Source of the DNA: Leptonemataceae bacterium
GTDB taxonomy: Bacteria; Spirochaetota; Leptospiria; Leptospirales; Leptonemataceae
Reading direction: 5' to 3'
DNA length: 64,000 nucleotides
NCBI GenBank assembly: GCA_965227295.1
Contig: OZ245742.1
Coordinates: 2,336,001 to 2,400,000 of the forward strand
Position numbers and translations under genes: made by a program. Below the pieces are notes generated by a model. It worked only from the letters and a program-made list of their open reading frames with translations, was not told where the DNA came from and made no database searches. Positions 13,624-45,666 of this stretch are shown here, piece by piece (the stretch's first letter is position 1; each line of letters begins with the position of its first letter).

Positions 13624-16600
13624 ATGAATTTCCGTTTCGCATTCCCTCGATCATTCCTGTCCCTGCGGCGGCGCTATCGGCGCTTCGCCCGCAAATCCAG
13701 ACTCCACCGTCGTTCCCTCAGTTCGTTCATGTCACTGCTCTTTCTCGTGCAGTTCGTCCTCGCGCCGACGGGCGTCTTCGCGCAGACGTTCGATCGTCTC
13801 GATGAGGATGTGAACAAGAATCGCATCGGCGATTACGCGAACGCCGTCGAGGGCGCGGATGACGAGGATGATTGGAATGAGTTCGTCGGCAGCGGTGCGG
13901 ATTTGTTGCGCGCGGAGTGGGAGTATCGCGCGGATCTGTTGCTCGAACAGGAAGTGACTGCCGGCGCGGCGCGGGAAGACCTCGAAGCGGAGAAGGCCCT
14001 CGCTCGTGAAGCCTGGGAAGCGGAACTGGACGACGAGATCGATCAGCGGCGCGGTCGGTGGCGGGCACGCACGGCGGCGCAGTCCCTCGACTCGTTGCTC
14101 GATGACATCGATTACGACGAACTGGTCGCCGCGGTGAACGATGCGAACGCGCTCATGTTCACCGACGCGGACGATGCGGCGACTCGCGTGGCGGCGTGGG
14201 ACGCGATCGCGGGGAATCGCGCGGCGCTTGCGAAGGCGGCGTGGGAATCGCAGCTGGACGCGGAGATGGCGGCGCTGCAATCGCAGGGCGTCGCGCTGGG
14301 TGCCGAAGAACAGGCGGCGTTTCTGAGCGAGCTGGAGCGGCAGCGTTCGCTGGCGGAGTCTGTCTATAAATCCGAAGAGAGTGTTTTCGTAACTTCTGCG
14401 CGGCGTAAGTTTGTAACCGAGGCGAATGCCGGCGATGACCTGGCGCGGGCCCTGGCGCAGAGCACGGACCCCGCCGAGATCGCGCGTTTGCTCGTGCAGC
14501 AGACCGAGCTGGAGATGGAACGCCTGGGCGTGTTACCGGGCGATGTGCGGTTTGACGGTGTCGATGCGCAGTTGATTCTGACCGGCGCGGGGGATTATCA
14601 GGACCAGGTCTCGCAGGCGCTCGAGGCCGGGCAGTCGGCGTGGAAGTCGGCGATCGATGAGTTGATTGCGCGCAAGATCGGCTTTGATGAGCAGGTGGCG
14701 GCGTCGCGCCAGGCCGGGGAGAACCAGTGGGCGACGGCGTATACGACGATCTTAGATGCGCGTGAAACGTGGTTAGCGGACGTCGAGGCGCAGATTCAAC
14801 GTGGTCTCGAAGCCTGGGACGCGGCGGAGTCCGGGCTCGCGGAGAACCGGCAGCTCGCCGAAGAAGAACTCGCGCGGCTGATCGAGAGTGATCGGCGGGA
14901 GTTTCAGGAACACAACCGCGGCATCGGCCAGCTGGTGAGCGGGGCCTCGCAGACGCTCGAAACGATCGTCGAAAACCAGCGCTGGTTTCAACACAAGATC
15001 GCCGATCTCCAGGCCGACATCGTGCGTTTGAACGGGGAATCGGAGAGCTTCGCCGACGGCCTGGCCATCGGCGGCACGCCGGAGTGGACGGCCTGGTATA
15101 ACGCGCATCGGACGGATCATACGAACGCGGAGATGCAGGAGCGGCAGAATCGCATCAACGTCTATACCGGAGAACTGAACTACTGGAACAGCCTCGAAGC
15201 GGAGTACCGGCAGATCATTACGGACGCCGAGAGCGTCGTCCACGACCAGGACATGCGCGACGGCGGTAGCGGGCCCGGCTATTTTCACGATGACGGCACC
15301 GAGGGCGACGTGCTGCTCTTAACCGCCACGGAGTTTGAGTTAAAGCTGGCCCGGGCGCGCCTGGCGGTGCTCGAAGAAGAACGCAGTCGCGCGAAAGAGG
15401 TCTATGACTACGCGCTGGCCGCGACGAAGTTGAGCGCCGCGGAGATCGAGACGCAATTGGCGACCGCGAAGGACGCCTATGATCTGGCGGAGACCGAGTA
15501 TTTGACGGAACTCTCGGCGCTGAACGGCGGCGGTTCGCAGAGCCTTACGCGGGTGGGGCTCTCCGATGAAAGCAGTCGCGCGGCGGGGGAGACGACGGAC
15601 CTCGGCCCGACGCTGCTGGACGACGTGAACACGCGGGCGGCGGAACTGGAAACGGAGGCCCTGGAACTGGAGCGGGCGCGCACGGCCCTGGATAACGCGC
15701 GGCAGGCCTACGAACAAACCGTAAAGCTCCAGGTGTTAATTCAAAATCCGCAGATGTTAAGCGACATCGGCCTGTTGTCCACGGACCCGTACGAAGTCAA
15801 CGAGGACGGCGAGAACGAGGGCCTGCGCTACGAGATCTTCAAGGCCGAAAAGGATCTGGCCGAGGCGCGGGAAAAGATGCGCCAGCAGGAGAAGGCCTAC
15901 GTGCGCCTGCTGTACGAACGCGAGACGGCGCTGCGCAGTACGGGCTTTTTTAATCAGACCAACGAACGCATCATCTTACACGAGGAGACGAAGGATCGCC
16001 TGGCGGAGTTGAGCGCGATCATCGGCGGCGGCGATGCGCTCGAGGACAAACTCACGGCGCTCGCCGCGGGCACCACGCTTACGGATCTCTACGGCAACCA
16101 GGCGGCGGACGCGCTCCGGGATCGCATTACGGAACTGGCGGACGCTCTTGCGAACGCGGCCGGGCCGGTAACTTCGGAAACGCAGAACTTAAACACGGGC
16201 CTCGGCGACTTCGGGCCGGCCCACGCCGTGTTGGACGCGAACTTCACGGGGGCGGAGCGCGCAAGACTCACGCAGTACGCGGACCGGGTGGACGGCGTGC
16301 TGGACGCGCTTGCGGACATTAGCGGGCTCGACTGGACCGGTCTGGGTCTGCCGGACATGCGCGCGCTGGCGACTTCGCTCCGGGACCATTCGACGGAACC
16401 GGGCACGCTCGCCGCCGACTACAGCACAGCCTTTAATGATTTGCAAACAGAACTTACGGCGTACCAGGCCTACGCCGCGGCGAACGCGGGGGCCGAAGCG
16501 AGCGCGGACTACCAGGCGCGCACGGCGGCCGTGTTGATTGCGACGGATGAGTATCGCCTGGCGGCGGCACGCTACGAACAGCGTTACCAGCTCGCCCGGA

Positions 16601-19600
16601 GCGCGCAGGCGCAACTGGAGACGTTGCTGGATCGCGCGCTCACGAGCGGGCCGATTCTTACGGATGCAACGTTGACCGGGGACGCGCGGAGTGCGGCCCT
16701 CGCGACGATCACGGCGCAGAAAGACGAACACACGGCCGTGAAGGCGGAAGCGCTCGCGGCGATCGAGTCCGTGGACGCGGGTTTCGAGGCGCTGGTGGAG
16801 GCCTTTACGAATCACGGTGAACGGTTGGGCGAGTATCGCACGGCCCTCGGGGAACGCAATCTGGCCTACCGTGAGGCGGGGGATTTCTTAACCGAACTGC
16901 ACGAGAACTTACGCGGCAGCCTCGCGTCCCAGCGTTCGCAACTGGGTTTTCTGCTGGATGAGAACGCGGACGAGGCGTTGCTCGAATCCATGGACGCGGA
17001 ACACCGGCGGGGCCTCGCGACGGCGGCGGCGGAGACGAACCTGCGGGCGATCGAACTGCTCGAGGGTTATCTCGGCGTGGATCGTGACGTGAATGTGCTG
17101 TTGATTGAAGTGACCGAGGACATCAACCATCGTCTGGCAAACTATGACGCCACGGACGCGGGCCAGCGGCGGGAGCTGACGGCGCTGCGGGCCGTGGAGC
17201 AATACGTGGGGCGGAGCGCCAATCTGCTGGCGAATCTGTCGGAGGACGAGCGCGCGGAGTTGCTCGCGGGCCTGGCGGACGAGCGGGACTTCGCGATCGC
17301 TCTGCGGGATTTCTACGTTTCGGACGGCGTGATGGACGACGCCGAACAACTGGCGATTCGCAGCGGCGGCAACCCGGAAGAACGGCGGTTGCTGTCGGCG
17401 TACTTCAACCCGCCGGCGCAGATGATGTTCGGTGAGGCCGCCTTCGGCGCGACGGCGGCGGAATCGTACTTAACTTCTCAACACCGTAGGTTTGCGGAGC
17501 AGGTGCGCGCGGGGCTGATCCAGAGCGCGATTACGGATCGGTACCACGAGGAGCAGGAAAACAAGATCACCGGCCTGATCCAGGAAATGAAAACGGCCGT
17601 GCCGGCGCTCGCGAGTCTGTCCGCCTCGCAGCTCTACAACGACAGCGAACCGGTGGATCCGAGCGGCCTCGCTCACGATACGGACGCAGAGGACGCGCGC
17701 CGGGCGATTCTCGCCTCGCTTTTGAGTGCGGCGGGCAGCGAAACCGGCGATCGTCTGACGGCGTTGTATGACATTGCGCAGCTGGAAACGATCTACGGGC
17801 CGGCGATTGCCGTGGAAGTGTACACGGACCTCGCCCGGGTGGTGGACGGTTACGGGAGCGCCGGGCAAGAACTGGTGCGCGCGTCCCAGGCGATTGTCGA
17901 CCAGGCCGCGGAGTTCGACGCCGAAGTGGACGCGCTCTTAGATGCGTACGATGCAAAGTTAAGCTACGAAGGGCAACGGGATCGCGTGGCGGCGGCGCTG
18001 GCGCTTTTGGAGTACGAGGACCCGGCGAGCGGTTCGACGGCAGCCGTGGGGCAGGCGGACGTGGACGCGCACGTGGCGAACCTCGACATTCCCGGCGGCG
18101 ATGATCCGGCGGTGGATCATCCCGCGGACTGGACGCCGGTGGACGATACCGACGGGGACTCGCCGGGAGATGCGGGCTGGGATCCGTCGTACGAAACGGA
18201 AGTTTTTGTGCAGCCGTACGCGGGGCTCGACGCGAGCGAACTGGAACAGGATCGCGACGACCTGAATACAGCGCTCGCCGATTGGGACAACAAACGCACG
18301 GAGCTGGATACGGCGATTGCGACGTACCGCGCGGCGAAGGCGACGTTCGACGCGTTCGTGGCGGCGAACCCCGGCAGCGAGGGCACGCCGGCCTACGAGG
18401 CCGAGATTACGACCTATGCCGCAGCCGTGAACGATATGTACTTCGCGTACCGGGAGCATAATAACTTTTTTACGGCTCTCGAGTTCGTGGCGGAACGCAG
18501 TGCGGCTTCCGGGGCGACATTTTTCGCGGCGGCGCAGGCGATCGATGCGAGCGCCGTGGTAACCACGGAAGAGTCGGCGTTCTTAAGTGCGGCGGATGTA
18601 TTGTTAACGGAGCGGGACGACCGGGCGCAGACGGAGTTTGATTTTACGCAGGCCGCGGTGGACGTGGGCACGGCGCGCAACCGTTACACGGAGGCGGAGA
18701 GCGCGCTCGCGACGGAAACGACCGAGGCGGATGATTTTATTGCGGACCTGGGGGACCGGGTGGATGTACGGATCAGCGCGGTGAGCACGGACGCGGTGAG
18801 CGCGAATGAGTTGATCGACGTGCTTGCGGAGCTGCGCCGGTTTTTTACGGAGAAGCAGGCGCGCGGGGAGGAGATCAATCCGACCATCGTGAATTCGCTG
18901 GAAGCGGCCGGCCAGGTGCTGGACGAACTGGCAGCGCTCAAGGATTACCAGGCGCGGGGCGCGAGCGTGAGCGTGGAGGATGCGCGGCAGGAACGGACCG
19001 ACGCTCAGGAAGAGAGCGAGCAGATGCAAAAGTTCGGTGAGGTGCTGTTAGAGCTACAGCAGTTCATTGCGAACACGGAGGCGGCCGGCGCCGGCCTGCA
19101 CGAGCAGGGCGCGAAGATCAAAGAGCTGCTCGCGAAGTACGAGAAGGCTAAAGACGATTACGGCAGCGTGTATACGTTCAGCGCCGAAGTGGAAGACGCG
19201 ATGACGCTCTTGCGCGATCACGCCTGGGCGCAGCACAAACGGCAACTGGTGGACGCGTATCTTGCAAAGCGCGGGCAGCTGAGTGTGGACGAGTTCATGG
19301 AGGACGTGGTGGAGGGCCGCTTCTTTAGCCAGCCGGTGAACCCGAATCAGACGGAAGCGCCGACAGTAACGTTCGGCGGCGGGGTTGCGCCGGAAGCGGA
19401 AGAAATCAGCGGCGATTTCCTGGGCCAGACCCTCGACGCGGCGCAGCTAAGTGAGGTTCGCGCACTGTTAAGCGAGTACGCGGCGCGGGCGCGGATCGAC
19501 GACGCCGGCATTGTGGCGGACATTGACGCGTTGCTGGCGACGGAAGACGCGGCGGTGCGCGCGGCGATCGAAGACGAGGCACTGGTGACGGTCTTTAATA

Positions 19601-22600
19601 ACTTCAACAGCGCGAACGCCGTGGGGGTGGGCAATCATGCGCAGCTTCCGGATGTTTTGAAAAACTACGGCCTCGTGAGCGCGTATGAAAGTTACGCGGT
19701 GTTGCTGCAACTGGATCTGGACGACGCCGACGACCGTACGCTGGCGATGCAACGCTTCCTGGACACGATGACGACGGAGAACCGCGCGGCGGCGGAGCCG
19801 GTCTTAAGTGAATATCTTACGAACTTTGACGCGCGAAACCCTTCGTTTTACCTGCCGGCCGAATTGAAAGCGCGGCACGCGAAAGAGCGCTACTTTGCGA
19901 TGCGCTACACGGACGAGCTGAGCCCGGGGGACGTGACGGCGCTGAACGACTGGCTGGCCGCGGAGAAATACGACGCGGGCGTGAGCGGGGCCGTGGGTGA
20001 AGCGGTGCGCACGGCGTACATTCTGGATAACTACTATGGTGAGAGCGCCGACGATTACTTAGATTCTATTGATGCGGACTTAACGGCGCTCACCGGGACG
20101 GGGGTGAATGCGACGGAACGACAGGCGTTCGTGCTGGGGCTCACCGGATTGTTGAGCGCGGCCGGGGACGCGTACGTGGAGCCGGAGGCGATGATCGCGG
20201 GGGAGGTTGTGTATGACAACTTTACGTTCGCGGACAACACGCAGGCGTTGAAAGAGGCGCTGCGCAACGAACAGATCGCACACACGGTGGAGCTGGCCGC
20301 GGCCGAACGCGCGGCGGTGCGGGCCGGGTACTTTTATGATTATAAGAGCGGGGCGCGGACGATTCGTTCGTTCAAGAGTTATGTGAACATCGGCCTGGGC
20401 GGTCTCGCGGAACCGGACGAGGCGACGCAGATCGCGGGGCAACTGGCGGAGCTGGAACATCAGGCGGAGCACCGCCTGGGAGCGTTCGTGGGTTTGGTGG
20501 AGCAGTACTCGAGCTTCGCGTACAATCCGGACCCGGCGTACGACAACAACCTGAACATCCGCGATACGATCGCCGAGATCAATACGGACTTTGTGCTGCA
20601 AGACGGGCAGTACGCGAAGAACCCGGACGGCAGCTACGTTTTTGAAGGCGGCTTAAATAACACTCAGGTGCGGTTAGACGAGTACGTGAACGCGAACACG
20701 GCGGCGTTTACGGCGGCGGACCGCGACGCCTACGCCCAGGTGCAGAAGTGGGAAGGGCAGGTGGATCAACTGCAGGAGACGATCGTTACCGCCGGCCAGG
20801 AGGCGGTGATCGTGAGCAACGCCCTCGGGACCTACGGCTCGGACGTGGGGGCGATAACGAACGCATTGCAAGGCGCGCGGGAGGAGTTTGAGCAACGCGA
20901 GAGAGACTTCGGCGAGGCGGAAGAGGAGTACGAGAACGCCGAAGACAACCTGCGCGACGCGCGCAACGCGTATCGGGCGCAGCAGGAGCTGGTGCTCACG
21001 AATTACAATGCGCTAAAGTCGGCCGAGGAAGAGTTAGACCGGCTGAGCGGGCTGCATGATCAGGCGGTGCTGGAGGAGTACTCGCAGCAGACGAACGAGC
21101 AGGGCGAGGTGGAGACGATCGGCGATACACTGGAAACGGTGCAGGCGCGTTATGAAGCGGCGGACGAGGCTTATCAGACTCAACTGGAAAAGATCCAGGC
21201 GCTCGAAGAGAAGTTAGACCGGCAGGTGACGAAGGCGGAGCTGGCCGCGGCGGCGGAGGTGCAGACGAATCGCCAGGAGACGGAAGACTGGGCCATGCAC
21301 GCGATGCGGTTCTCGCGCGCCGAATCTATATTAGAAGATAAGATCAACGATCTGCATGTGCAGATCGACAACCTGAAAGGCCAGATGGAGTACGCGGGCC
21401 TGGGGCAACACTTTGATATATCGCGGAGTCGCTTCGTCGGCAAACGCCAGGACCTCGACGGATACCTGGATTACGGGAGCGCGGCCTACATCGACAGCGA
21501 ACGCATGCATCGCGCACGGTACCGACACTTAGAAGGATTTTTGCGCGGGGAGATTGGTCCGTGGGATTTGATTTACAGTTCGCTCGGCGGCATCTACGCG
21601 AAACCGTATCTGGGAGTGACGATCAACTTCACGGAGGCAAGCGGCGGAATATATTACACGGATGTACCGGGCTGGAGCGAGGGCCTGCGCGTAAACAGCG
21701 GCGGACGGTACGATCTCTACGGCTTTGCGCAGGAGTACAACCAGGGCAAGACCGGTACGAATGATATTCTTTTGAATCTTGTAAAGGATCAGTTTCCCAC
21801 CGCCTGGGACGGCGAGGCATGGGCGTATGCTCGCGCAACGACGGACGCGGCGAGTTTCAACAACGGCATGACGGCGTTGTACAACAGCGACGTCGCGGGA
21901 CAGGCGGTGATCTACGCGGCGATGGGCGCGGCGGGCCTGGGATTTCTGTTTCAGTTGTATGCGAAGGATACGGCTTTTAAGGATCAACTGGATCGTGCGA
22001 TGGATCGGCTGTACGGATTGCCGACGACGAACCTGGTGCAACAGGGCAACGAACTGAAGAACCTGTACGCGGAACTGCACCGGCTCACGGACATAGACAG
22101 CGTGGAGAAACTGCGGGACGTGCTGGACGATCCGGAGTACGGCTTAACCGCGGATGATGTGGCGTTAATCCAGGGCAGCGGAACGTTAGATCAACTGATC
22201 TGGAAGGGCGGCAAAGAGGACTTAAGCCTGGATGATGTGGTGGGCGCGAACGGCCTGCCGATTGCGCAGGATAAGGCGATTCATGATGAGTTTGGATTCT
22301 ACGTGCGGGACGGGGAGTTCAGCGCGGGGAACATAACCGCGAATCCGACGGGGACGGACAAGTACGGACGGAGAACCGCACTGATGGTGAGCGCCGATGA
22401 ATTCACGGACGCGCTTGCCGCGATGAGCCAGACACAGTATGAGATCGAACGCGAAGAGTATTTCAGAGCCGCGGAGACAATGACGGAAGACCGCGTTCAG
22501 GCGGACACGGTGACGATCCTGGATGAACGCGAAGAGTTCTATGGCACGTTGATGCAACAGGCCGCCAGCGTGGGCGTGCAGTTCGAGATGTACCGCGCAC

Positions 22601-26263: not shown

Positions 26264-26716
26264 ATGCTTGACCTGGAAGGAATAAGAACTCGCTTCAAAT
26301 CAACTGATCGCGAAGTTCGCATCGCGCAGATTCATACCGTGGGAGATCATATCTACCCTCGCGGCGAACCACAGGAGATATATATTGATAACTTTGACGA
26401 AATTATCGATTTCCTAATTGGAGTGGTCGGTTACGAAAAGGATGAGGATGTCCGAGAGGAAGTTTTAACGGCGTTGTTCTATGCTTGCTCTTCCAGTACG
26501 CGAATTGAGAAGCATGACATATCCGCACTCCTTGAGGTCCTTTCCGACCTGAGTGACCAATCGCTGGAGTATGCCCTATCCTGCATTGGCTTTACGCATG
26601 ACCCTCAGCATTTGGAAACTCTAAGGCGGTTCCTGGATCATACGTCGCCAATCGTAATGGACGCTGCACACGAAGCTATTTTTGAGATCGAAAATAGAAA
26701 GAACCGGGAGCTGTAA
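26264..26716 (+). CDS. HEAT-repeat-like candidate immunity protein
   Basis: Starts 7 nt after the toxin stop; helical repeats (DEDVREEVLTAL, SPIVMDAAHEAIFEI); no signal peptide. Confidence 0.7.
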   Translation: MLDLEGIRTRFKSTDREVRIAQIHTVGDHIYPRGEPQEIYIDNFDEIIDFLIGVVGYEKDEDVREEVLTALFYACSSSTRIEKHDISALLEVLSDLSDQSLEYALSCIGFTHDPQHLETLRRFLDHTSPIVMDAAHEAIFEIENRKNREL

Positions 26717-26782
26717 TGCCGAAAACCTATCTCAGGTGACCTCCCGCCATTCATAACGATCATGACTCCCTCGCACGTGTCG

Positions 26783-33723: not shown

Positions 33724-33751
33724 CCCACATGCTTCTCGCGCGTAAACGCAA

Positions 33752-36700
33752 ACGGCGAGGCCTGGGCCTATGCGCGCGCAACGACGGACGCGGCGAGTTT
33801 CAACAACGGCATGACGGCGTTGTACAACGCCGACGTTGCGGGACAGGCGGTGATCTACGCGGCGGGGCTGGGATTTCTGTTTCAGTTGTATGCGAAGGAC
33901 ACGGCGTTCAAGGATCAACTGGATCGTGCGATGGATCGGCTGTACGGATTGCCGACGACGAACCTGGTGCAACAGGGCAACGAACTGAAGAACCTGTACG
34001 CGGAACTGCACCGGCTCACGGACATAGACAGCGTGGAGAAACTGCGGGATGTGCTGGACGATCCGGAGTACGGCTTAACCGCGGATGATGTGGCATTAAT
34101 CCAGGGCAGCGGAACGTTAGATCAACTGATCTGGAAGGGCGGCAAAGAGGACTTAAGCCTGGATGATGTGGTGGGCGCGAACGGCCTGCCGATTGCGCAG
34201 GATAAGGCGATTCATGATGAGTTTGGATTTTATGTGCGAGACGGGGAATTTTCGGCCGGCAATATCACTGCGAATCCGACAGGGACGGACAAATACGGCC
34301 GCAGAATCGCACTGATGGTGAGCGCCGATGAATTCACGGACGCACTCGCGGCGATGTCACAGACGCAGTACGAGATCGAACGCGAAGAGTACTTCCGGGC
34401 AGCAGAGACAATGACGGAAGACCGTGTACAGGCGGACATGGTGACGATCCTGGATGAACGCGAAGAGTTCTATGGCACGTTGATGCAACAGGCCGCCAGC
34501 GTGGGCGTGCAGTTTGAAATGTACCGCAAACTCGCGGAAGACTATCACGGCGAAGGCGGCGTGGTAGACCAGGTGGCGGAGCTGGAGATCCAACAGCGAG
34601 TCGCATCCCAGAGACACGAATGGGACCTGCGCATGGAACAGTTCCGCAAGAAACGCCAGGAGTGGGGTGAAAACATTGCGCAGCTTACGAACGTGGGCGA
34701 GCAGAAGTGGAGCGACATGACCACCGAGATGGCCACGGCATGGAACGAGTGGCGGAAAGACTTCGACGCCGAAGCTAAGGCAGCGGAAGATCTGTACCTC
34801 GAACGTATTTCGGAAGCGATTGTAGACGAGCAGGAGTGGACGCAGGAATTCACAACGCTGGCGGCGCAAGGGGCGGACGAGCAGACGTTAAGAGAGCTGT
34901 ACGACGAAATCAATGAGATGGTGACGAATCTCAGAAGCGGCCTAGCGGCGGATATGCAGGTGGAGATCAACGCGAATGAGATCCTGAACCGCGTGCTGGC
35001 GAATAAACCGGACACACTGAACGAAAGCGTGGTGATGGCGGGGGAGTATGCCAACACGCAGATTTTCCTGGATGAGCTGAAGGACCAGAACTTCGACAAC
35101 AGCATTCAGGATCGTTATGATGATCTCAATGAACGTTACGGAGAAATGGCGCAGCGGCTCGTTAGACTGCAAAGCCTGGATAGTCTGTACGGATTGATTG
35201 ACCTGTTCGATGAAACGATCGCAGAAGCGAACGCCAGATTACAGTTGCAGATGGACCAGAAGATGGGCCAGACGAACTGGGTGAAGATGGGCGACTTGTA
35301 TACGAAGCAGATCAAAACGGCACAGGCAGTGCTTACGGGACAGCCGAGCATTCCCGTGTTTGCGCCTTCGTTCCACGATTACTTTTACTTGAAGCCGGAC
35401 CTCCGCAGTGAAGCGGTGGTGAAAGACTCGGAAGGCAAAGAGTGGAACCTAACAGACACTGAGTCCATATTAGCAGACGGCGGACCGAGCAGCGCGGAAC
35501 TGGAGAGCATGGTGCGCCTGGTGCGCAACAAACTGGAGAAGGAGTTCGAGCAAACCTACGATCCGGATGAGGAGGTGGACTACGAGGGCACCAGTGGATT
35601 GGTGTTCATTAACTGGCAACAGGCGCTGGCCGATGCGAGTGCGGCGGCGATTAACCCCTCCACGTGTAACTTAGCGGAAAGCATGGATGAATGCGCCCGG
35701 AACATTATGCAGTCCGGGTATACCGTGGGCCTTGTGGAAGGCGGAACGTTTGGACGCCACCACTTCGAGGAATACTACCGCGCACTGACAATCCGCAACT
35801 TCTTCGACCAGATGGAAGCAGACGGTAGAGCTATGCGCGAGAGTACCGGTGGACGCATGGGCCGGGACTTCGGGACGAACTTAACGGCCTTGCACCGTGG
35901 TGCGGTGCGGAACATGAGTTCCGCTCTCGATGTGCTGGAACGTAATTCGAAGTACGTCCAGATGCTTCAGGTTGCGAACAGGCAGTTACCGATTGCTCAG
36001 GCGCAAATCGGCGCGGCGCGGCGCGGACTGGATCAATACGAAGACATGAACCAGCGTGTGCGGGTGGGACTGAGCAAGGGCTGGCAGCGGAACGACGATG
36101 AGATCGACGCCGTGATTAAAGTCGGCGGCACGATTGTGGCGGGTGTGCTGTATGCCGTCTCGTTCGTCTTTCCTCCGGCGGCAGCCATCGCTTCCGGTGT
36201 TCTTGCAGCAGTAGGTTCGTACTCCGGAGTGCGGGGTAGCTACGAAGGCGGCACGAAAGGCGCGCTGGCGGGAGCGGCGAGTGTGGTGCCGGCGATCGTT
36301 AGTAAAGGTGCGGTGAATACAAACTTAAGCTACACGTTTCAGGAGGGCTGGAGTGTCGGCGTGGGCGCGGAGGTTTCGAAAGGCGTCGGCCTTGGTGTGA
36401 GCTATTCGGAACAAGCGGGTTGGGGTGGTAGCATCTCTCTCAGCGGCTCTCAGGGTGTCGGTCTTGATTTCAGCATTGGTGAGCAGGGTCGTTACGGTGT
36501 GGGCTTGAGTGTCGGCGGCTTATGGCAGACAGGGGATGCGAGTGGCGGTGCAGACCTGGGCTGGCGCGTTGGTTACAACACGGGGCCGGAAGGCGAAACC
36601 TATAGTGTCGGTCTGACGGGGTATGGCGGAGAGAAATACGGTCCGAATGGCAACGTCGGTATCGGTGTAACCTACAATCAGAATTTAGGTAACGGCTATT

Positions 36701-38217
36701 ACATTAGTGGCGGAGCGAACGGCGGCGCCGGGTCCGGTTACTTCGGTGGAACGGCAAGCTGGAACTGGACGCGTTTCGGCGGCAGTTCGGCCACGTTCGG
36801 TCTGACGTATAAGCCGCCGCGGCCTGATGATGACGGCAGTCCGATCGATACGCCGGAGGAGAAAACGGCGTTGGATATGTTTCTCGCCGCCGCACGGCGT
36901 GAGGCCGGTGAGGTCTGGGATGATGTCGGCGGCGGGCTTGGATGGCTGGGCGAGCAGGTGGCCGGCGGGTTTGGATGGTTGGGTGGTGCCGTTACTGGCG
37001 GTCTCGCGAGTGTGGCCGGAGCGCTGGGTTGGGAGAGTGGTGCGAATTGGTTGGCAGGGAATGGGTATGTCGACAACGCCACGGCGGAAGCGAATCAGCT
37101 GGCGGAGTTTCGGGCTTATGCCGCGAGAAAAGCGGAATTGGAACAATTAAAGCTAGGGCTAAGAGAAGGGAAAGTCCTAGTTAGAGAAACGGAAGATGGC
37201 CGTTGGATCTTTGTGGATGTCGAAACAGGAGAGTTCTATACTGACGATCCATTCGTTGGAGGACTCGTTCGTTCCGATGAAGAAGGTGTCTTCTATCTAG
37301 CTGGTCCGGTGGTTCCCCCGGCTTTGGCGGAAGCTATCGCGAAAGTGGAACAAACTATCGAAGATAGTGAACCCTTCCCGGATGCTGGAGATGCTGGCGA
37401 CGTTCTCGAGACAAGCGAAAAAATTCTTGAACAAGCAGAGCGACTGAAGAATTTCCGTAAGGCGTTGGGTGCACTCGGCAAGCTTCTTTCCGCGTATGAT
37501 ACTATTAATGATTCGGTGACAAGCATTAAGACACTGTCTGAGCGAGCAGAGGTGCAGGAGGAAATTGAGAGACTTGCCTTGAAGGAAATAGTTCATGACG
37601 AATGGGCCCGGAATACTGAAGCACGATACCGAGTGTCCCAGCGACTAAAAGAGCTAAACTCGGAACTGGGGAAAGTTACGACTACGGAGCAGCGGGAAAC
37701 TCTGACTCGGAGAATCCAACGGTTAGAGAGATTCCGTGATGAGGTACTATTACCTGCTAAACAGGAGCTTCTAATCCTAGAACGATTGAATCAATCTGTC
37801 GATAGAAGGCATAGCGGAGTCGGGGCGGCATTCAACGACTACTTAGAAATCGCCTATCCTTCAAAGGGAGCAGATCCATTCTACGATCCCCATTCAACAT
37901 TCGATTATGATGGGAACCCTCATGAACTGAATCTGACTGATCAAAGGAAGTTGAGGCTTCGGAGTGAGTATTACTCTGCTGTCGCATTGGGAGAGCAATA
38001 CTTCAATGAGACAGGTGCGAATGTGCGTTCACGGAGCATCTTTGGATGGCTTCCTTTTGGGGAATGGGGAAGCAAGGCTGGGAGAAAGCTCGATCAGCGC
38101 GGGTACGCGAGTCTCGATACGACTTTAAAGGGCTACTTGTGGCAAATGGCTTATCGGGCAGAAACTCTTCCAAACTGGCATGTGCGATATATCGATTTCG
38201 TTTCTGATAACTACTAA
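33752..38217 (+). CDS. Orphan toxin cassette 2 (longest; first ATG at 33811) with alternative helical C-terminus
   Basis: Matches the giant gene from 21809 (GEAWAYARA) to 25119 (ESGANW), with a 9-nt in-frame deletion; then a different tip. Confidence 0.88.
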
Positions 38218-39197
38218 TGAAGATCTATATAGTCGGTTTCAGTAGTCTATGCTTTGCTATTCTTGGGGGCATCCATTTCATTCTAGCTGATAGTTTGCTA
38301 GAAGTTGATTCTGGACGACCCGTTCGAAGCATCTTGGTGAATCGGGATCCATCTTTTGTGGCCATAGGTTCCGATTCAGTAGGCTTTCGTAGCAATATCG
38401 CAGTATTCTGGCCTGGTAAGACAAGACCGACTCGGCTTTCTGGAGAGCGGGCTGTATATGCGATGGTTTTTCATCAAGGCTCTAGAACTCTTTATGCTGC
38501 AGGTGAATTCGGATATATTGAGAGCTTTCGATTGCCGACTGGCAATAGGCTTAGGCCGATTAGTTTTCCCGATGTCGAAATTCTGGCCTTAACCAAGGCA
38601 GGAACTGACAAACTGATAATTGCCGGGCACAATACGCACAGTAATCAGCCGTACTTGGGCCTGTACAGTATTCGACAGAAAAAGGTGAGCAACTCTGTCT
38701 TGTTCGCTGAAACGCGTGGGCAGGCGTTCGTATCTGACGTACATTATCATGAGAAATCAAAGTTACTTTTGGTTATGTTGCAAAGGCGAATGTACGTCTA
38801 CGAACTACCGGATTTTGATAGAAAATATGACAGACAGTTGCGAGGTACAGTGATTAGGCAGGCCGTTTTTTCCAAAGATGGTGGAACAATCATCTGGGGC
38901 GGTCTGTTTGGCGAGCTTGGCGCAATCCAGATTGCAGCAAGCGGTTCGAGCTTGGTTAAAGCAGCTCATGAAGGAGAAATCTTGGGGTTGGCTGAGAGCG
39001 ATGACGGTCTACTCGTCACATCTGGAGATGATAAACAAGTCAAGGTGTGGTCTTCTTATTCTGGCGGTCTTGCGTTGGTCGGGACCTGGCAGAGCCCTAC
39101 GGTTGTTACAGAAATAGTCGCGGAAGCTGGGCGTTTGTATCTAGGTATGGCGGATGGAAACCTTGAAGTGCTAGCGATGGAAGATTTTATGAAGTGA
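38217..39197 (+). CDS. WD40-like beta-propeller with N-terminal signal/anchor; candidate immunity protein of cassette 2
   Basis: TAATG overlap with the cassette stop; AHEGEILGLA...LVTSGDDKQVKVW repeat. Confidence 0.75.
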   Translation: MKIYIVGFSSLCFAILGGIHFILADSLLEVDSGRPVRSILVNRDPSFVAIGSDSVGFRSNIAVFWPGKTRPTRLSGERAVYAMVFHQGSRTLYAAGEFGYIESFRLPTGNRLRPISFPDVEILALTKAGTDKLIIAGHNTHSNQPYLGLYSIRQKKVSNSVLFAETRGQAFVSDVHYHEKSKLLLVMLQRRMYVYELPDFDRKYDRQLRGTVIRQAVFSKDGGTIIWGGLFGELGAIQIAASGSSLVKAAHEGEILGLAESDDGLLVTSGDDKQVKVWSSYSGGLALVGTWQSPTVVTEIVAEAGRLYLGMADGNLEVLAMEDFMK

Positions 39198-40349
39198 AAT
39201 AGTCAAGATTCCATCTGACACTCCGATATAATTTGTATCGGAGGAAAGAGATGACAGCAGAACAAAAAATCGTAAAGCACCGGGTGGGCATCTTGAGGCT
39301 GGCCCGTACTCTGAATAACGTTGCAGAGGCTTGCCGGGTGATGGGCGTATCACGCGATACGTTCTACCGGTATCAGCGGTTGTACGAGACCGGAGGCGAA
39401 GAGGCCCTGAAGGATCTCACGCGGCGCAAGCCGAACAAGAAGAACCGGATTCCGGCGGATGTGGAAGACGCGGTGATCGAGTTCACGTTCGAGAAGCCGG
39501 CGCACGGTCAATTGCGCGTGTCGAATGAGCTGCGCAAGCGCGGCGTTTCGATCTCACCGGGCGGCGTGCGTCAGGTCTGGTTGCGGCACGACATGGAGAC
39601 GTTCAAGAAGCGTCTGAAGGCCCTGGAAGCCCGCGTCGCGCAAGAGGGGATCATTCTCACCGAGGCACAGGTCGCGGCGCTTGAGAAAGGCCGCCAGGAC
39701 AAAGAAGCGCACGGCGAGGTCGAATCGCACCACCCCGGCTATCTGGGCTCGCAGGACACGTATTACGTGGGCAATATCAAGGGCGTGGGGCGGATCTACC
39801 AGCAGACCTTCATCGACACGTACGCTAAGGTCGGCTTTGCAAAACTTTACGATCGCAAGAACGCACTGACGGCGGCCGACTTGCTGAACGATCGTGTGTT
39901 GCCGTTCTACGCGGACTACAACATCCCGCTGCTGCGCGTGCTCACCGATCGCGGCACGGAGTACTGCGGCAAGCCGGAGAATCACGAGTACGAGTTGTAC
40001 CTCGCGATGGAGGACATCGATCACACCAAAACCAAAGCGCGGCATCCGCAAACGAACGGCGTCTGCGAACGCTTTCACAAGACGATTCAGGAAGAATTCT
40101 ACGCCGTCGCGTTTCGCAAGAAACTTTACTCAAGCATCGAGGAGCTGCAAGCCGATCTGGATGAATGGATGCTCGAGTATAACCAGGAACGGACGCACAG
40201 CGGCAAGTACTGCTTCGGCAAGACGCCGGCGCAAACGTTCGCTGAATCCATCGCCGTGGCGCGTGAAAAGATGCTGCATAAACAGCATCAGGTATCGACC
40301 TGATCATATCTGACAGGCAGGAGTGTCAGATCGGGTGTTGGCTAGTACA
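39195..40349 (+). mobile_element. IS481-family insertion sequence with 7-bp target duplication TATGAAG
   Basis: Imperfect 26-bp IRs TGAAATAGTCAAGATTCCATCTGACA / TGTCAGATCGGGTGTTGGCTAGTACA; TATGAAG at 39188-39194 and 40350-40356. Confidence 0.9.
39251..40303 (+). CDS. IS481-family DDE transposase
   Basis: HTH (NVAEACRVMGVSRDTFYR), GSQDT, LTDRGTEY, PQTNGVCERFHKT; GGAGG RBS before ATG 39251. Confidence 0.95.
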   Translation: MTAEQKIVKHRVGILRLARTLNNVAEACRVMGVSRDTFYRYQRLYETGGEEALKDLTRRKPNKKNRIPADVEDAVIEFTFEKPAHGQLRVSNELRKRGVSISPGGVRQVWLRHDMETFKKRLKALEARVAQEGIILTEAQVAALEKGRQDKEAHGEVESHHPGYLGSQDTYYVGNIKGVGRIYQQTFIDTYAKVGFAKLYDRKNALTAADLLNDRVLPFYADYNIPLLRVLTDRGTEYCGKPENHEYELYLAMEDIDHTKTKARHPQTNGVCERFHKTIQEEFYAVAFRKKLYSSIEELQADLDEWMLEYNQERTHSGKYCFGKTPAQTFAESIAVAREKMLHKQHQVST

Positions 40350-40370
40350 TATGAAGCGAGTACATTCGCA

Positions 40371-41034: not shown

Positions 41035-41607
41035 TGTAAGCTTGAAATACTCATCCACGCCTTCAAGCGGCTTCCCAATGATAAGTAGAATGCAGCCCGC
41101 CGAGCACAGGTCTTCGCAAGACCCGTACGTTATTTTTTTGGTGGCGGTTCTGTCTGACGGCCCTCCGGCGAACCGAGGTCCACAGACGCGTGCGTGCGGT
41201 GCCGATTGTAGTTGCAAACGTAGATTGCTCGTCGCATACTTGCTGAAATGTGCCCAACAGGCACGCCGAAATGGCCACTGTAACGGAGACGTTTCGGATG
41301 AGATCAGAGGATCTTTAACAGGCAAGCAGTGATAGTCTGAACGGACTGACTGCGGCGAGAAGAAACAGCAGAGGTTCGCCTCTGCCGAAGCGATATGTTG
41401 AATTCCGCACACGTGTGCGGAATTCGCCCTTCGAGAGTCGGGGCCGCTGAGTTCTTTGCGGCTAATATCTGATTCACAAGCGTTAGCGATGCGGAGGGTG
41501 GCGCGCAGCGCCAGTCTCGCGTCTTCGCGAGACCGCAGCGAAGCGGAGCCCGTAGCAGCGCGACGGCCCGCCGCCTCCGCGGCGCGGCGGGCCGGAACGC
41601 CCAGAGC
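41035..41607. repeat. Junction element copy C (IS end + transposase 3' scrap + core + hairpin module; empty intron site 41599|41600)
   Basis: TGTAAGCTTGAAATACTCATCC; minus strand reads VLRRPVLGGLHSTYHWEAA; palindrome at 41400-41425. Confidence 0.9.
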
Positions 41608-41611: not shown

Positions 41612-44410
41612 GAAACAATCGCAGAAGCGAACGCCAGATTACAGTTGCAGATGGACCAGAAGATGGGCCAGACGCACTGGGTGAAGATGGGCGATGTGTA
41701 TACGAAGCAGATCAAAACGGCACATGCGGTGCTCACGGGACAGCCGAGCATTCCTGTATTTGCGCCGTCGTTCCACGACTACTTTTACTTAAAGCCGGAC
41801 CTGCGCAGCGAGGCGGTGGTGAAAGACTCGGAAGGTAAGGAGTGGAACCTAACAGACACCGAGTCTATATTAGCAGACGGCGGACCGAACAGCGCGGAAC
41901 TGGAAAGCATGGTGCGGCTGGTGCGTAACAAGCTGGAGAAAGAGTTCGAACAAACCTACGATCCGGATGAGGAAGTGGACTATGAAGGAACGAGTGGGCT
42001 GGTGTTTATTAACTGGCAACAGGCCCTTGCGGACGCGAGTGCGGCCGCGATTAACCCATCCACGTGTAACTTAGCAGAATCCATGGATGAATGTGCGCGG
42101 AACATTATGCAGTCCGGGTATACCGTGGGCCTCGTGGAAGGCGGGACGTTTGGACGGCACCACTTCGAGGAGTACTACCGCGCACTGACAATCCGCAATT
42201 TCTTCGACCAGATGGAAGCAGACGGTAGAGCTATGCGTGAGTCTACGGGTGGTCGCATGGGCCGGGACTTCGGGACGAATTTGACGGCCTTGCACCGTGG
42301 TGCGGTGCGAAACATTGACTGGGCGTTGAATACTCTGGAACGTAATTCGAAGTACGTCCAGATGTTACAGATTTCTCAAGGCCAGCCCCCGATGTTCCGG
42401 TCGCAAGTCGGAGCAGCAAGACGCGGGCTGAGTGAGTTTGACGACTTCAACCAGCGTGTGCGGGTGGGACTGAGCAAGGGCTGGCAGCGGAACGACGATG
42501 AGATCGACGCCGTGATTAAAGTGGGCGGGACCGTTGTTGCCGGGGCACTGTATGCACTTTCGGCTGTATTGCCATTCCTGGCACCCGCGTTAGTGCCCGT
42601 GGCCAGCGGAATTATGGCCGGGGTGGGTGCGTACTCCGGAGTGCGTGGTAGTTATGAAGGCGGCACGAAAGGCGCGCTGGCGGGAGCGGCGAGCGTGGTG
42701 CCGATGATAATCTCCAAAGGTGCCATCAACACGAACTTAAGCTACACGTTTCAGGGTGGCTGGAGCGCCGGTATAGGCGCGCAGGTTACCGAAGGTGTGG
42801 GTGTCGGTGCGAATTACTCGGAGCAGGGCGGCTGGGGCGGCAATGTTAGCATTGGCCTCGGCGATTCACCGCTCGCTCTTGATTTGAGCGTGGGCGAGTA
42901 CGGGCGTTACGGCGCGGGGCTGACGTACAGCTTTGTGAAGTCACCGGAAACTGCGAAGATTCAGAAACATCTGGGCCTGCGTTTTGGGTATGATCGTGGA
43001 CCGGAAGGCGTAACGTACAGCGCCGGTCTCGTGGGCAGCGTGGGTAACAAGGCCAACGGCTACGCCGGCGGCGGGAACATCGGTCTGACTCACAATCATT
43101 TGAACGGGACCGGCTTTTACCTCGGTGCGAGCGGCAGCGGCGGCGATTATTCGCAGGGCCTCGGCGGGCAGGCGAGCTACAACTGGAGTCGCTTCGGTGG
43201 CAGCTCTACGACCTTCGGCATTACGTATACCCGTCCGCCGGAGGAACACGGGAGTCCGCTGGACAGCCCGTATGAAAAAAATATGTTCGACACGTTCATG
43301 GCGGCGACACGCCGGAATGTAGATGAGTTCTGGGGTGATGTCGGCGGTGGGCTTAGCTGGTTCGGAGAGCAAGTTACGGGCGGTCTCGCAAGCGTGGCCG
43401 GGGCTCTGGGCTGGGAGAGTGGCGCGAACTGGTTGGCGGGTAGAGGATATGTCGACAACGCCACGGCAGAAGCGAATCAGCTTGCGGAGTTTCAGGCGTA
43501 TGCGCTGGAACGTGATACAGAGGAATTTATTCGGCTCGGTGTCCAGGACCGTGCCGTTCCAGTGGGGGAAACACCTGAAGGTAAATGGCTGTTCTATGAT
43601 CCGGTTACAGGAGATTTCTGGTCAGAGAACGGGGATGGTGGACTGAAGCTGGTAACCGAAGATGGTGAGGAAGTTCAGTACGTTCGGGGCAAGAAAAGTC
43701 GCAAGGGAAATAGGTTCCGGTCGGGCAAAAGCTCTGGGGTCAAGAACTCGAAGCGACAATATGCCAAGGCCAAAGAATTCTTTGCGAATCAGCTCAAGAA
43801 TGATTCAAATGCAAAAAGACATCAGGAAAAACAATATAACAATGCGAATATGACAGCGGAGGATAAATTGAATCTTTCTCGGTCACTGGCTGAAAAGCAC
43901 TTGCGAGAAAACTCATCGCAACCAGGAACTCGACCGACTTTACTGGGCGAAGTCATTGCGGAGGGATTAGTATGGTCAGAGGAAATCTTGGCTCAGAAAA
44001 CTATGGATGCTCTTGATAGCGAGTATGAAGATTTAGTTGAATTGCATAGAGAATCGTACACGTCAGGATCGGTAACGACGGATGCGCCAGGACTGGGGGA
44101 CTTAGTAAGGACTCAACTATCAAATAATCGCAGAAAGATCCTTGATCGCGAAGTAGCTAGAGTGGTTGAGAGTACGGAAGTCGCATGGAGCCTCGAAAAT
44201 GGACTCGATCCGGCTACAGCTATTGATCGAGCTATCGACAGTAGCGTGCGATCCTTTGAGTCGAGTATCAGACCGGCTCCTCTGCCGGGTGAGAATACCT
44301 ATTGGAAAGACATCTGGTATGATTCGTTAACTACGGTTGAAGTTAAAATGATCAAGAATCGCGCGTTAAAAGAGTTGATGATTCGAAACCGAAAGAGGAT
44401 GGACCGATGA
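41612..44410 (+). CDS. Orphan toxin cassette 3 with a third alternative C-terminus
   Basis: Matches the giant gene from 23281 (ETIAEANARL); the reading frame is open back into the junction element (ORF 41456). Confidence 0.85.
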   Translation, partial: ETIAEANARLQLQMDQKMGQTHWVKMGDVYTKQIKTAHAVLTGQPSIPVFAPSFHDYFYLKPDLRSEAVVKDSEGKEWNLTDTESILADGGPNSAELESMVRLVRNKLEKEFEQTYDPDEEVDYEGTSGLVFINWQQALADASAAAINPSTCNLAESMDECARNIMQSGYTVGLVEGGTFGRHHFEEYYRALTIRNFFDQMEADGRAMRESTGGRMGRDFGTNLTALHRGAVRNIDWALNTLERNSKYVQMLQISQGQPPMFRSQVGAARRGLSEFDDFNQRVRVGLSKGWQRNDDEIDAVIKVGGTVVAGALYALSAVLPFLAPALVPVASGIMAGVGAYSGVRGSYEGGTKGALAGAASVVPMIISKGAINTNLSYTFQGGWSAGIGAQVTEGVGVGANYSEQGGWGGNVSIGLGDSPLALDLSVGEYGRYGAGLTYSFVKSPETAKIQKHLGLRFGYDRGPEGVTYSAGLVGSVGNKANGYAGGGNIGLTHNHLNGTGFYLGASGSGGDYSQGLGGQASYNWSRFGGSSTTFGITYTRPPEEHGSPLDSPYEKNMFDTFMAATRRNVDEFWGDVGGGLSWFGEQVTGGLASVAGALGWESGANWLAGRGYVDNATAEANQLAEFQAYALERDTEEFIRLGVQDRAVPVGETPEGKWLFYDPVTGDFWSENGDGGLKLVTEDGEEVQYVRGKKSRKGNRFRSGKSSGVKNSKRQYAKAKEFFANQLKNDSNAKRHQEKQYNNANMTAEDKLNLSRSLAEKHLRENSSQPGTRPTLLGEVIAEGLVWSEEILAQKTMDALDSEYEDLVELHRESYTSGSVTTDAPGLGDLVRTQLSNNRRKILDREVARVVESTEVAWSLENGLDPATAIDRAIDSSVRSFESSIRPAPLPGENTYWKDIWYDSLTTVEVKMIKNRALKELMIRNRKRMDR

Positions 44411-44940
44411 AGTCTATACCGTTAAGAACTACAATATTGATATTACTCTTGCTGATGCCGTGGACAGTCGACTGTCGGCCGCAAAGTGAAAACCACTCTA
44501 ATACAAGCTGTGAGATAAACATTGACTTCGAAAAGGGTACGAAGGAGTTCCCAATAGGTCAAAAGTTCACGCCTGAGTCAATACGAGCCTATGGATTTAC
44601 GAAGCTAGAAATGGGCGATGATTTTCTGGAAGGCTCAGGATTGCGAAATTTCTATCACAACGGCACCAAGACAATTCTGATTGCTTATTCCGATGAGGAT
44701 GTACTGGTTCATGTCTCTATCGAGGCAAAGGAAGACGTTTGCTTTCGGGGGCAACTGATTCGAGATCATAATCCGTACGCCTTTTACGAGGCCTTACAAC
44801 AGGCTGGAGCTTCCATTCCGATACAGGATGCAGATGAAATTCGAGACGGCTTTCGGGTTCCCGGGCCTCGGGTTGAAATTCGGGTGGTAACAGAAAACGA
44901 TTCGATACAGAGAATTTTAGTTAGTGAGTATGTCGAATAA
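44407..44940 (+). CDS. Exported/lipoprotein-like candidate immunity protein of cassette 3
   Basis: ATGA overlap; MKSIPLRTTILILLLLMPWTVDC signal. Confidence 0.7.
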   Translation: MKSIPLRTTILILLLLMPWTVDCRPQSENHSNTSCEINIDFEKGTKEFPIGQKFTPESIRAYGFTKLEMGDDFLEGSGLRNFYHNGTKTILIAYSDEDVLVHVSIEAKEDVCFRGQLIRDHNPYAFYEALQQAGASIPIQDADEIRDGFRVPGPRVEIRVVTENDSIQRILVSEYVE

Positions 44941-44996
44941 GTCAGATTGGGCTGCTGAATGCGACTCTGACTTTGTGTAAATAGATTCTTGCACTC

Positions 44997-45513
44997 TGTA
45001 AGCTTGAAATACACATCAAAGCCTCCAGGCGGCCCCACGCCGGGTTATCCCTTGCGAGTCTTTGAATGAGCCGGATTTCTTCGACTGGAATTCGCGGCCG
45101 GCGCGGTCGATTGTAGTTGCAAACGTAGATTGCTCGTCGCATACTTGCTGAAATGTGCCCAACAGGCACGCCGAAATGTCTGACGTAATGGAGACGTTTC
45201 GGATGAGATCAGAGGATCTTTAACAGGCAAGCAGTGATAGTCTGAACGGACTGACTGCGGCGAGAAAAGGCAGCAGAGCTTCGCCTCTGCCGAAGCGATA
45301 TGCTGAATTCCGCACACGTGTGCGGAATTCGCGTCTCGGTTCCCGGAGGATGTTCAGCTCTTTGCGGCTAATGTCTGATTCACAAGCGTTAGCGATGCGG
45401 AGGGTGGCGCGCAGCGCCAGTCTCGCGTCTTCGCGAGACCGCAGCGAAGCGGAGCCCGTAGCAGCGCGACGGCCCGCCGCCTCCGCGGCGCGGCGGGCCG
45501 GAACGCCCAGAGC
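44997..45513. repeat. Junction element copy D (empty intron site 45505|45506)
   Basis: TGTAAGCTTGAAATAC start; same transposase scrap as copy B; palindrome at 45305-45330. Confidence 0.9.
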
Positions 45514-45666
45514 CGCAGAAGCGAACGCACGCCTGCAACTCCAGATGGACCAGAAGATGGGCCAGACGAACTGGGTGAAGATGGGCGACTTGTACACGAA
45601 GCAGATCAAAACGGCACAGGCAGTGCTTACGGGACAGCCGAGCATTCCCGTGTTTGCGCCTTCGTT
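45514..45666 (+). pseudogene. Orphan cassette 4 stub truncated by IS
   Basis: AEANARLQLQ...VFAPSF matches the giant gene from 23289 and stops at the IS end (45667). Confidence 0.85.

Follow-up and report, generated by a model that had tools for sequence, protein, structure and literature searches.

A gene for a protein of about 4,200 amino acids (aa), followed by several fragments that repeat its 3' part and end in differing sequences, raises the questions of what such a locus encodes and how its products would leave the cell. This arrangement occupies positions 13,624 to 45,666 of the window, by which is meant the whole 64,000-nucleotide (nt) stretch of contig OZ245742.1 (positions 2,336,001 to 2,400,000) of a Leptonemataceae bacterium (assembly GCA_965227295.1). 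The locus is very probably a chromosomal polymorphic toxin system with spare cassettes, built on a rare, giant, helical carrier protein that is shared with Leptospira. Its anatomy, its family relations, the assignment of one tip to the toxin family Ntox30 and a trace of recombination are observed directly. An earlier note, made from the letters alone, had recognized the layout of a polymorphic toxin gene with orphan tip/immunity cassettes, and the full-length gene, truncated copies, differing tips and coupled small genes described below bear it out. The expressed gene, its parts and the small gene behind it are, in window coordinates:

13624..26256, + strand: main expressed gene, carrier plus Ntox30 tip (4,210 aa; database form P0001, 4,210 aa)
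13624..13785, + strand: candidate export signal or anchor at the N-terminus (from a hydropathy scan, where it is segment 58-83 of the 4,237-aa form)
13786..24171, + strand: carrier body, about 3,460 aa, all-helical (AlphaFold2 (AF2) model and composition)
24172..24288, + strand: pair of hydrophobic Gly/Ala-rich helices directly before the beta region (hydropathy scan, 3544-3582 of the 4,237-aa form; the model also has helices here)
24382..24879, + strand: Gly/Ser/Tyr-rich region with 12 predicted beta strands, candidate membrane beta-barrel (AF2 strands at aa 3587-3752)
25147..26253, + strand: tip 1, 369 aa, with the Ntox30 domain at 25969-26244
26264..26716, + strand: immunity candidate 1, cytoplasmic HEAT-repeat protein (alternative start 26225; HEAT_2 33.6 bits against a cut-off of 27.7; guanine plus cytosine (GC) fraction 0.468)

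The main open reading frame (ORF) spans 13543..26256 and gives 4,237 aa if its first ATG, an alternative upstream start at 13543, is used; the start at 13624, already chosen in the earlier note, is preferred because the form in the public protein set (P0001) has 4,210 aa. When the whole main protein is searched in its 4,237-aa form, Ntox30 (PF15532) matches aa 4143-4234 with 87 bits (cut-off 25) and E 1.2e-24; on tip 1 alone the match reaches 91 bits. The motif names RxH and THIP are given for Ntox30 in a table row of PMC3482391, and RIH and THIP are both seen in the tail of the main protein, in agreement with the signature originally proposed for this tip. In the sense of PMC3482391, the expressed gene ends in a recognized C-terminal toxin domain and tips 2 to 4 do not. 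PMC3482391 also lists HEAT repeats as a class of immunity protein and lists Ntox30 for spirochaetes; from their sequences, a cytoplasmic HEAT-repeat partner fits a nuclease-type Ntox30.

Downstream of the main gene, self-blastn of 13,000-47,500 maps four 5'-truncated copies of the region that precedes the tip. The copy at 33752-37079 matches main-gene positions 21809-25148 over 3,340 nt columns at 95.4% identity, that at 27067-28580 matches 23062-24572 (1,517 columns, 90.2%), that at 41612-43432 matches 23281-25119 (1,886 columns, 76.8%) and that at 45514-45666 matches 23289-23441 (153 columns, 90.9%). Standalone cassettes sharing the pre-tip region are therefore present in the number first claimed, four, although their description as near-identical applies to three of them and fails for the third long copy at 77%. 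The cassettes and their coupled genes are:

27067..30123, + strand: spare cassette 1, intact 1,018-aa ORF, 1,517 nt at 90% to the main gene, divergent barrel half, ending in Gly-rich tip 2
30131..30439, + strand: immunity candidate 2, 102-aa membrane protein with hydrophobic N-terminus, beside Gly-rich tip 2 (GC 0.434)
33752..38217, + strand: spare cassette 2, intact 1,468-aa ORF from 33811, 3,340 nt at 95% to the main gene, ending in tip 3
38217..39197, + strand: immunity candidate 3, 326-aa WD40 beta-propeller (WD40 33 bits against a cut-off of 27; N-terminal signal-like segment)
41612..44410, + strand: spare cassette 3, open frame of 984 aa from 41456, 1,886 nt at 77% to the main gene, ending in tip 4
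44407..44940, + strand: immunity candidate 4, 177 aa (N-terminal signal-like segment; GC 0.446)
45514..45666, + strand: 153 nt left of one more carrier copy, truncated by an insertion sequence (IS), at 91-94% to the other copies

In three copies the shared stretch ends after ..GALGWESGANW, and the spare 1 protein remains carrier-like for about 143 aa past the end of the DNA homology. Beyond the shared part the tips are about 325-378 aa long and mutually unlike, except for a stretch of 40-86 aa at the start of tips 1, 3 and 4. Each of the four is followed at once by a small gene, as the earlier note had observed: the distance from stop to start is a 7-nt gap for gene 1 (start 26264) and gene 2, and genes 3 and 4 overlap the preceding stop by 1 and 4 nt. 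GC fractions are 0.48-0.53 for the tips, 0.43-0.47 for the small genes and 0.58-0.63 for the carrier, which points to a foreign origin of the tips and immunity genes, with GC 0.43-0.53 against 0.58-0.63 in the carrier. From sequence we infer that the small genes neutralize the tips they follow; the partnering of the other three tips with membrane or signal-bearing candidates (2, 3 and 4) suggests that these tips may act in the envelope. Immunity candidate 3, a WD40 propeller, would have a fold that the 2012 survey PMC3482391 does not see among immunity proteins. Two low-GC membrane-protein ORFs also lie after the complete IS element described below, at 40352-40550 (about 57 aa) and 40575-40901 (about 108 aa), and may be stray immunity genes; the 108-aa protein was considered as a copy of immunity candidate 2, to which it bears no similarity.

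The shared parts carry the marks both of selection and of exchange. Differences from the main gene at codon positions 1, 2 and 3 number 23, 17 and 100 for spare 1, 13, 12 and 116 for spare 2 and 94, 73 and 223 for spare 3; as they fall mostly at third positions, the shared parts have diverged under protein-level selection. The tips and small genes contain no in-frame stops, compared with 4-28 in the other two frames (9-27 for the tips). Along the shared stretch, spare 2 is between 87 and 100% identical to the main gene, and a tract of 544 nt adjoining the tip junction (24497-25040) is 100% identical, where about 23 differences would be expected from the 95.8% identity of the pair overall. This tract is read as that of a recent gene conversion or crossover, so that the recombination through shared sequence proposed in the earlier note has left a visible trace.

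A second layer of organization in the array, a conserved spacer together with a group II intron and two IS elements, had gone unreported in the earlier note:

26782..27066, + strand: spacer copy 1 (partial)
31332..31839, + strand: spacer copy 2 (full, 509 nt)
31840..33751, + strand: group II intron with a reverse transcriptase (RT)/maturase gene at 32275-33690; 3' end between about 33728 and 33751
39209..40333, + strand: complete IS481-family element, right after the WD40 gene (NF033577, 284.6 bits against a cut-off of 224)
41035..41599, + strand: spacer copy 3, consisting of its first 38 nt, a 138-nt remnant of the second IS and spacer positions 107-509 (41196-41599)
44997..45505, + strand: spacer copy 4 (full)
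45667..46612, - strand: second IS481-like element (partial), with an rve_3 transposase at 45695-46612 (69.7 bits, below cut-off)

The spacer, 285-509 nt long and 90-95% identical among its copies, stands in front of each of the truncated copies, and its junctions with carrier sequence fall at three different points. Rich in stem-loops and ending in a GC hairpin, it looks non-coding; it matches no Rfam family at E ≤ 1 and no protein family. Among the four copies only one of 87 predicted pairs shows covariation, and the terminal hairpin is no better than in shuffled sequences (z = -0.36). The spacer could be a recombination arm, a 3' untranslated region or part of a mobile unit. The intron is identified by Rfam matches above gathering score (RF02001 at 133.9 bits, RF01998 at 48.5 and RF00029 at 48.5) and by an RT/maturase matching TIGR04416 with 419 bits against a cut-off of 300, and has the features of a group II intron. 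Its 5' GTGTG begins 5 nt past the terminal GC hairpin of spacer 2. Its 3' flank consists of about 23 unrelated nt and then carrier sequence from position 21809, not a continuation of the spacer, which suggests a rearrangement at or through the intron. The complete IS481 element is bounded by 12-nt terminal inverted repeats, ATCTGACACTCC / GGAGTGTCAGAT. The second IS truncates the 153-nt carrier stump and adjoins a 38-nt copy of the start of the spacer, and a 138-nt piece of the same IS lies inside spacer 3. The 16-mer that opens the spacer occurs at 31332, 41035, 44997 and 45667, always on the + strand (four occurrences against 0.16 expected; none of 100 shuffles reaches four), and is followed twice by the spacer and twice by the end of the IS with the rve transposase; either the IS struck the same spot of the spacer twice or an IS-spacer junction was duplicated. 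No mobile element breaks a tip or an immunity gene.

The carrier itself begins with a basic stretch and a hydrophobic segment ending in ..VFAQ, after which cleavage would be expected from the sequence. The AF2 model of its first 600 residues, based on an alignment of 14 giants, consists of helices only (mean pLDDT 71.4; 76-96 over residues 60-300), and a fold search of this model against the PDB gave no match at E ≤ 0.001, just generic helical bundles. The composition of the body is in keeping with helices, with 1.8% Pro in residues 61-3440 and 48% A+E+L+Q+R+K, and there are weak SMC/Rad50 coiled-coil matches along it. No RHS/YD, FHA, LXG, VgrG or Hint family is found on the 4,237-aa protein by Pfam at E ≤ 0.01, Ntox30 being the sole match, which agrees with the failure of the earlier note to see any such motif. 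The C-terminal 1,064 aa have no PDB sequence relative below E 0.19.

The family to which the carrier belongs is rare. A HMMER search of 1.84 billion protein representatives, from which alone the breadth of the family beyond reference genomes is judged, with aa 2757-3868 as query, returned 88 proteins at E ≤ 0.001, of which 28 reached E ≤ 1e-30. Besides giants of 3,500-5,000 aa they include many shorter proteins (900-1,700 aa), and the giants align near end to end with the window carrier by local blastp (25-30% identity over 3,400-3,800 residues). A paralog, P0089 (4,322 aa), shares 62% identity with it over aa 1-3841 and parts from it precisely at the tip junction. P0089 lies on a contig of the same length as that of the window protein, 5,938,550 nt, and the genome therefore probably has at least two such carrier loci. 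A conserved carrier with variable C-terminal ends is evident in this split at aa 3841, in the four differing tips of the window and in the five known tip families counted among the relatives. The tip of P0089 is a different one, of 494 aa, with no Pfam family. In the reference genomes (one per species, scanned with a single peptide pattern by which other taxa may be missed; the set does not hold the genome of the window) all 15 related loci belong to Leptospira, in 10 species, and on the strength of these relatives the carrier class is probably a spirochete one, as had been suggested. A first pattern scan, made with a single protein, had given 81 matches and no relatives.

The Leptospira giants resemble the window carrier in having an N-terminal anchor, a helical body, a Gly-rich region, a variable tip, a small gene and truncated copies; their loci consist of the giant gene and a coupled ORF of about 200-290 aa, joined in several by further truncated copies each with its small ORF. 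They differ in that PT-HINT occurs among the relatives and in none of the four copies in the window, even at E ≤ 5, and the GC of the window, about 60%, is unlike that of Leptospira. Of 23 relatives scanned, 10 have PT-HINT, three have known toxin ends (barnase-type Ribonuclease, Colicin_E5 and Peptidase_M91) and 12 are without match; among 11 further giants one has PT-HINT, one Endonuclea_NS_2 and nine no match; and two of eight proteins that share only the Gly-rich region have PT-HINT, which brings it to 13 of the 42 relatives scanned. A profile of alignment A1 retrieved only HINT/intein chains from the PDB, contributed by these relatives. In L. gomenensis (L014:14780-19255) a long ORF 3' of the giant is a LIC12048-family lipoprotein (2,007 bits) and no spare cassette; not every long downstream ORF in such loci, then, belongs to the array.

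The cassettes also seem to have a preferred left border across the family. Eleven family representatives begin at residues 468-489 of the query (aa 2757-3868), seven of them with Met, and these starts lie within about 20 residues of those of spares 3 and 4 in the window. This border, at 23062-23290 in the window, coincides with the beginning of a conserved alpha/beta domain.

Little has been written about these proteins, as the earlier note had supposed. The name TIGR04388 was not found in literature full text, where the L. interrogans locus is seldom named. PMC4751964 mentions, briefly, a large L. interrogans protein with an N-terminal transmembrane segment and PT-HINT, linked to polymorphic toxins; the PT-HINT giant LA_3725 of that source would, to judge from its description, belong to the present family. 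A Leptospiraceae-specific toxin domain, PT8, has been validated according to a preprint (10.1101/2021.10.19.465003). The suggestion of a relationship to TIGR04388 (Lepto_longest) does not hold as one of membership: none of 14 window proteins matches at E ≤ 0.01, and the best values, E 0.24 and 0.69 (8.8 and 7.3 bits against a cut-off of 45), come from pieces of spares 1 and 3. Among 12 giants only P0017 comes near, with 43.7 bits over the final 380 model positions; no match is given by four Leptospira giants or by three shorter proteins from the loci, so that one of 16 giant relatives touches the model. In P0017 the matching region comes after the shared core, at the place of the hydrophobic helices and the Gly-rich beta region, and the carrier and TIGR04388 would at most share a C-terminal module without forming one family.

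Spare tips are a familiar feature of polymorphic toxins whose carriers are of the Rhs, CdiA, MafB or LXG class, and every one of these carriers is tied to a known export machine. The window has in common with the orphan-cassette loci of Rhs, CdiA and MafB a full-length gene followed by 5'-truncated copies with their own tip and immunity gene, and also lower-GC tips, IS elements within the array and traces of recombination. It differs from them in its carrier: Pfam finds no RHS/YD, two-partner secretion (TPS), FHA, MafB-N, LXG or VgrG domain that would place it in these classes or with the LXG and VgrG carriers, the body consists of helices instead of forming a beta-cage or beta-helix, a demarcation motif of the VENN or PxxxxDPxGL type is not recognized, and no partner transporter gene (CdiB, or one of a type VI secretion system, T6SS) lies near the array. 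Another point of comparison is offered by the umbrella toxins of Streptomyces (UmbC), which, according to PMC11062931, likewise bear a polymorphic toxin at the C-terminus of a large carrier that is mainly helical, and are secreted with no dedicated injection machine; there is no detectable sequence relation to them and there are no partner lectin genes, and the organism of the window is a diderm whose carrier has a predicted beta-barrel module.

That module offers a candidate answer to the question of export. In the AF2 model of the last 1,064 residues a moderate-confidence alpha/beta domain is followed by long helices, two hydrophobic helices and 12 strands. Foldseek comparison of this low-confidence model with the PDB gave 13 matches at E ≤ 0.001, all of them transmembrane beta-barrels, including a designed 10-strand barrel, KdgM (TM-score 0.58-0.63), NanC (0.47-0.48), VhGalP, OmpF and a Rhodopseudomonas porin. 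The predicted strands alternate hydrophobic or aromatic residues with Gly/Ser, the last ends in ..ATFGLTY, and many Gly and Tyr columns of the region are invariant across the family alignment. To judge from the model, the Gly-rich region is likely a 12-strand membrane barrel. A scan for beta-amphipathicity did not single the region out, and scored charged helices higher.

Inverse autotransporters (type Ve; intimin and invasin) consist of a signal peptide, a periplasmic part, a 12-strand barrel, a linker and a C-terminal exported part. The window carrier would have the same order of parts, and its predicted beta region resembles 12-strand barrels in the model; it differs from inverse autotransporters in having no family match to them and about 3,500 aa before the barrel instead of a small LysM domain. 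It is possible, and put forward only tentatively, that a single chain of about 4,200 aa, anchored at its N-terminus and forming a periplasmic helical rod, threads its C-terminal toxin through its own 12-strand barrel in the manner of an inverse type V system. This would be a new, self-contained, spirochete-type route for diderms that needs no partner transporter, T6SS or phage-like machine. If so, the barrel module would be what every spare must keep, and the truncated copies here and in Leptospira would for that reason start at nearly the same place.

On the proposed mechanism, the expressed gene would give rise to a helical carrier of about 3,500 residues that bears a Sec signal and is exported by Sec, in which the helical body is followed by the two hydrophobic helices, the 12-strand barrel region, a Gly-zipper-like linker and a tip of about 370 aa. 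The last 100 residues of tip 1, the Ntox30 domain, would act as a metal-independent RNase, from which the product of the HEAT-repeat gene would shield the producer. Three intact copies of the last 600-1,100 codons of the carrier, promoterless and signal-less, would be kept as silent spares, and homologous recombination within the shared 1.5-3.3 kb could transfer one of their tips, with the immunity gene behind it, to the expressed gene. As a set, the immunity genes may in addition guard against kin that express those tips. In the route preferred here, type-V-like self-export, the barrel would sit in the outer membrane of the producer and bring the tip to the cell surface in the way of inverse autotransporters; among the relatives in Leptospira, the tip would then be cut free by PT-HINT. 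In this scheme the toxicity of tips 2 to 4, the protection by the small genes and the route of export are deduced.

Several results weigh against this account. Tips 2, 3 and 4 match no Pfam toxin family and no PDB sequence (nothing below E 0.19), which leaves tip 1 as the one tip of the four in a known toxin family. Word searches for relatives of tip 2 (length band 559-1,782 aa) and tip 3 (807-2,569 aa) returned only the proteins of the window itself, and an Atlas look-alike search with tip 4 gave no usable match, the best score being 0.76 over the searches with tip 4 and with the piece comprising helices, barrel and linker, for which nothing usable was found either. That tips 2, 3 and 4 are toxins is argued solely from their position. 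The release step is left in the window proteins without the explanation that PT-HINT provides in relatives, and an array riddled with mobile elements (the intron, two IS and the 153-nt stump) also fits decay. As to export, the model of the last 1,064 residues, built from 22 sequences, has a mean pLDDT of 46.9 and a pTM of 0.31, with strands at pLDDT 45-55; no outer-membrane or autotransporter family is matched in Pfam or NCBIfam, and no secretion partner gene is seen in the flanks of the window. The 171-aa ORF just upstream (13089-13604) was considered as a conserved partner and set aside, being unlike the ORFs upstream of two Leptospira giants, which are also unlike each other.

Decay is the most direct alternative for the array as a whole: it would then be debris of tandem duplications and foreign 3'-end fragments broken by IS and intron, of which at most the immunity genes are useful. 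The group II intron between spacer 2 and spare 2, the two IS481-type elements, the IS remnant and the carrier stump of 153 nt would suit such a history, as would the absence of signal peptides from the spares and the divergence of spare 3, at 77% identity a poor substrate for homologous recombination. The three long spares are nevertheless uninterrupted over 984-1,468 aa, with no in-frame stops against 9-27 in the other frames; their substitutions are biased to third codon positions, an identical tract of 544 nt adjoins the tip junction, and mobile elements have left the tips and immunity genes whole, all of which makes wholesale decay unlikely. It is far less credible still that the array was produced by assembly, with the alleles of several strains stitched in tandem. 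Short-read assembly has trouble with repeats of 1.5-3.3 kb that are 90-95% identical, and draft contigs of Leptospira often break at such genes, but the contig that carries the proteins is 5,938,550 nt long, the flanks, the spacer junction and the mobile element are peculiar to each copy, and identities running from 77 to 95% are not those of a set of near-identical alleles.

If the array is, as favoured here, a maintained store of tips, the nature of these tips and their delivery may still be seen differently. The giant could be a structural or adhesive envelope protein whose variable end serves surface variation or the binding of host or substrate, Ntox30 being one cargo among non-toxic ones. 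Three of four tips have no toxin family, the body is huge, helical and rod-like, a possible outer-membrane barrel would display the C-terminus, and a similar L. interrogans locus was once annotated otherwise (PMC2387172). The clear match to Ntox30, the nucleases and the peptidase found as tips behind PT-HINT in relatives and a private, coupled, lower-GC gene after every tip, which is a hallmark of toxin and immunity pairs and needless for adhesins, leave this explanation very improbable. A different delivery of a genuine toxin is a more serious, if doubtful, proposition: the helices and the Gly-rich beta region would insert into the envelope of the target cell as a conduit for the tip, and the helical body would be an exported stalk. 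The FHA-2 region of CdiA has been proposed as such a conduit into the target cell. The position of the module directly before the tip, its retention in every spare and in short relatives, the absence of visible partner secretion genes and the longer loops (7-9 residues) on the chain-end side of the model, unlike those of usual outer-membrane proteins, would all agree with insertion into a target. However, the loop argument depends on a model of low confidence, and no outer-membrane export route is evident for a helical stalk of 3,500 aa. Self-export through the producer's own barrel is kept as the preferred, though tentative, route.

The surroundings of the array are these:

10338-11117 and 11141-11920, - strand: two adjacent family-less ORFs of 259 aa (left flank)
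12265-12903, - strand: Lcl_C (DUF1566-type) protein (left flank)
13089-13604, + strand: 171-aa signal-bearing ORF, ending 20 nt before the giant gene (left flank)
46895-56922, - strand: assimilatory nitrate/nitrite cluster (right flank), with a NirD-like Rieske protein, NirB-like nitrite reductase, tetrapyrrole methylase, rubredoxin-domain protein, fused molybdopterin nitrate reductase and major facilitator superfamily (MFS) transporter

The nitrate/nitrite cluster shows that the array sits in ordinary chromosome. Further to the left of the window, a gene for an AAA_21/AbiEii-type ATPase (1612-2757, - strand) lies in a stretch of lower GC (0.48-0.52), which may be a defence or toxin-antitoxin-related island unrelated to the toxin array.

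The same logic of spare tips that serves the established carriers is thus found here on an essentially undescribed carrier family without a solved relative, whose closest kin are in Leptospira, a genus with some species that infect people and animals. To our knowledge, almost nothing is known of interbacterial competition in spirochetes, and, if the built-in barrel is real, the locus would give a handle on it as well as adding a way in which polymorphic toxins are exported. With three of its four tips and two of its four small genes lacking relatives, it is also a source of candidate folds for toxins and immunity proteins.

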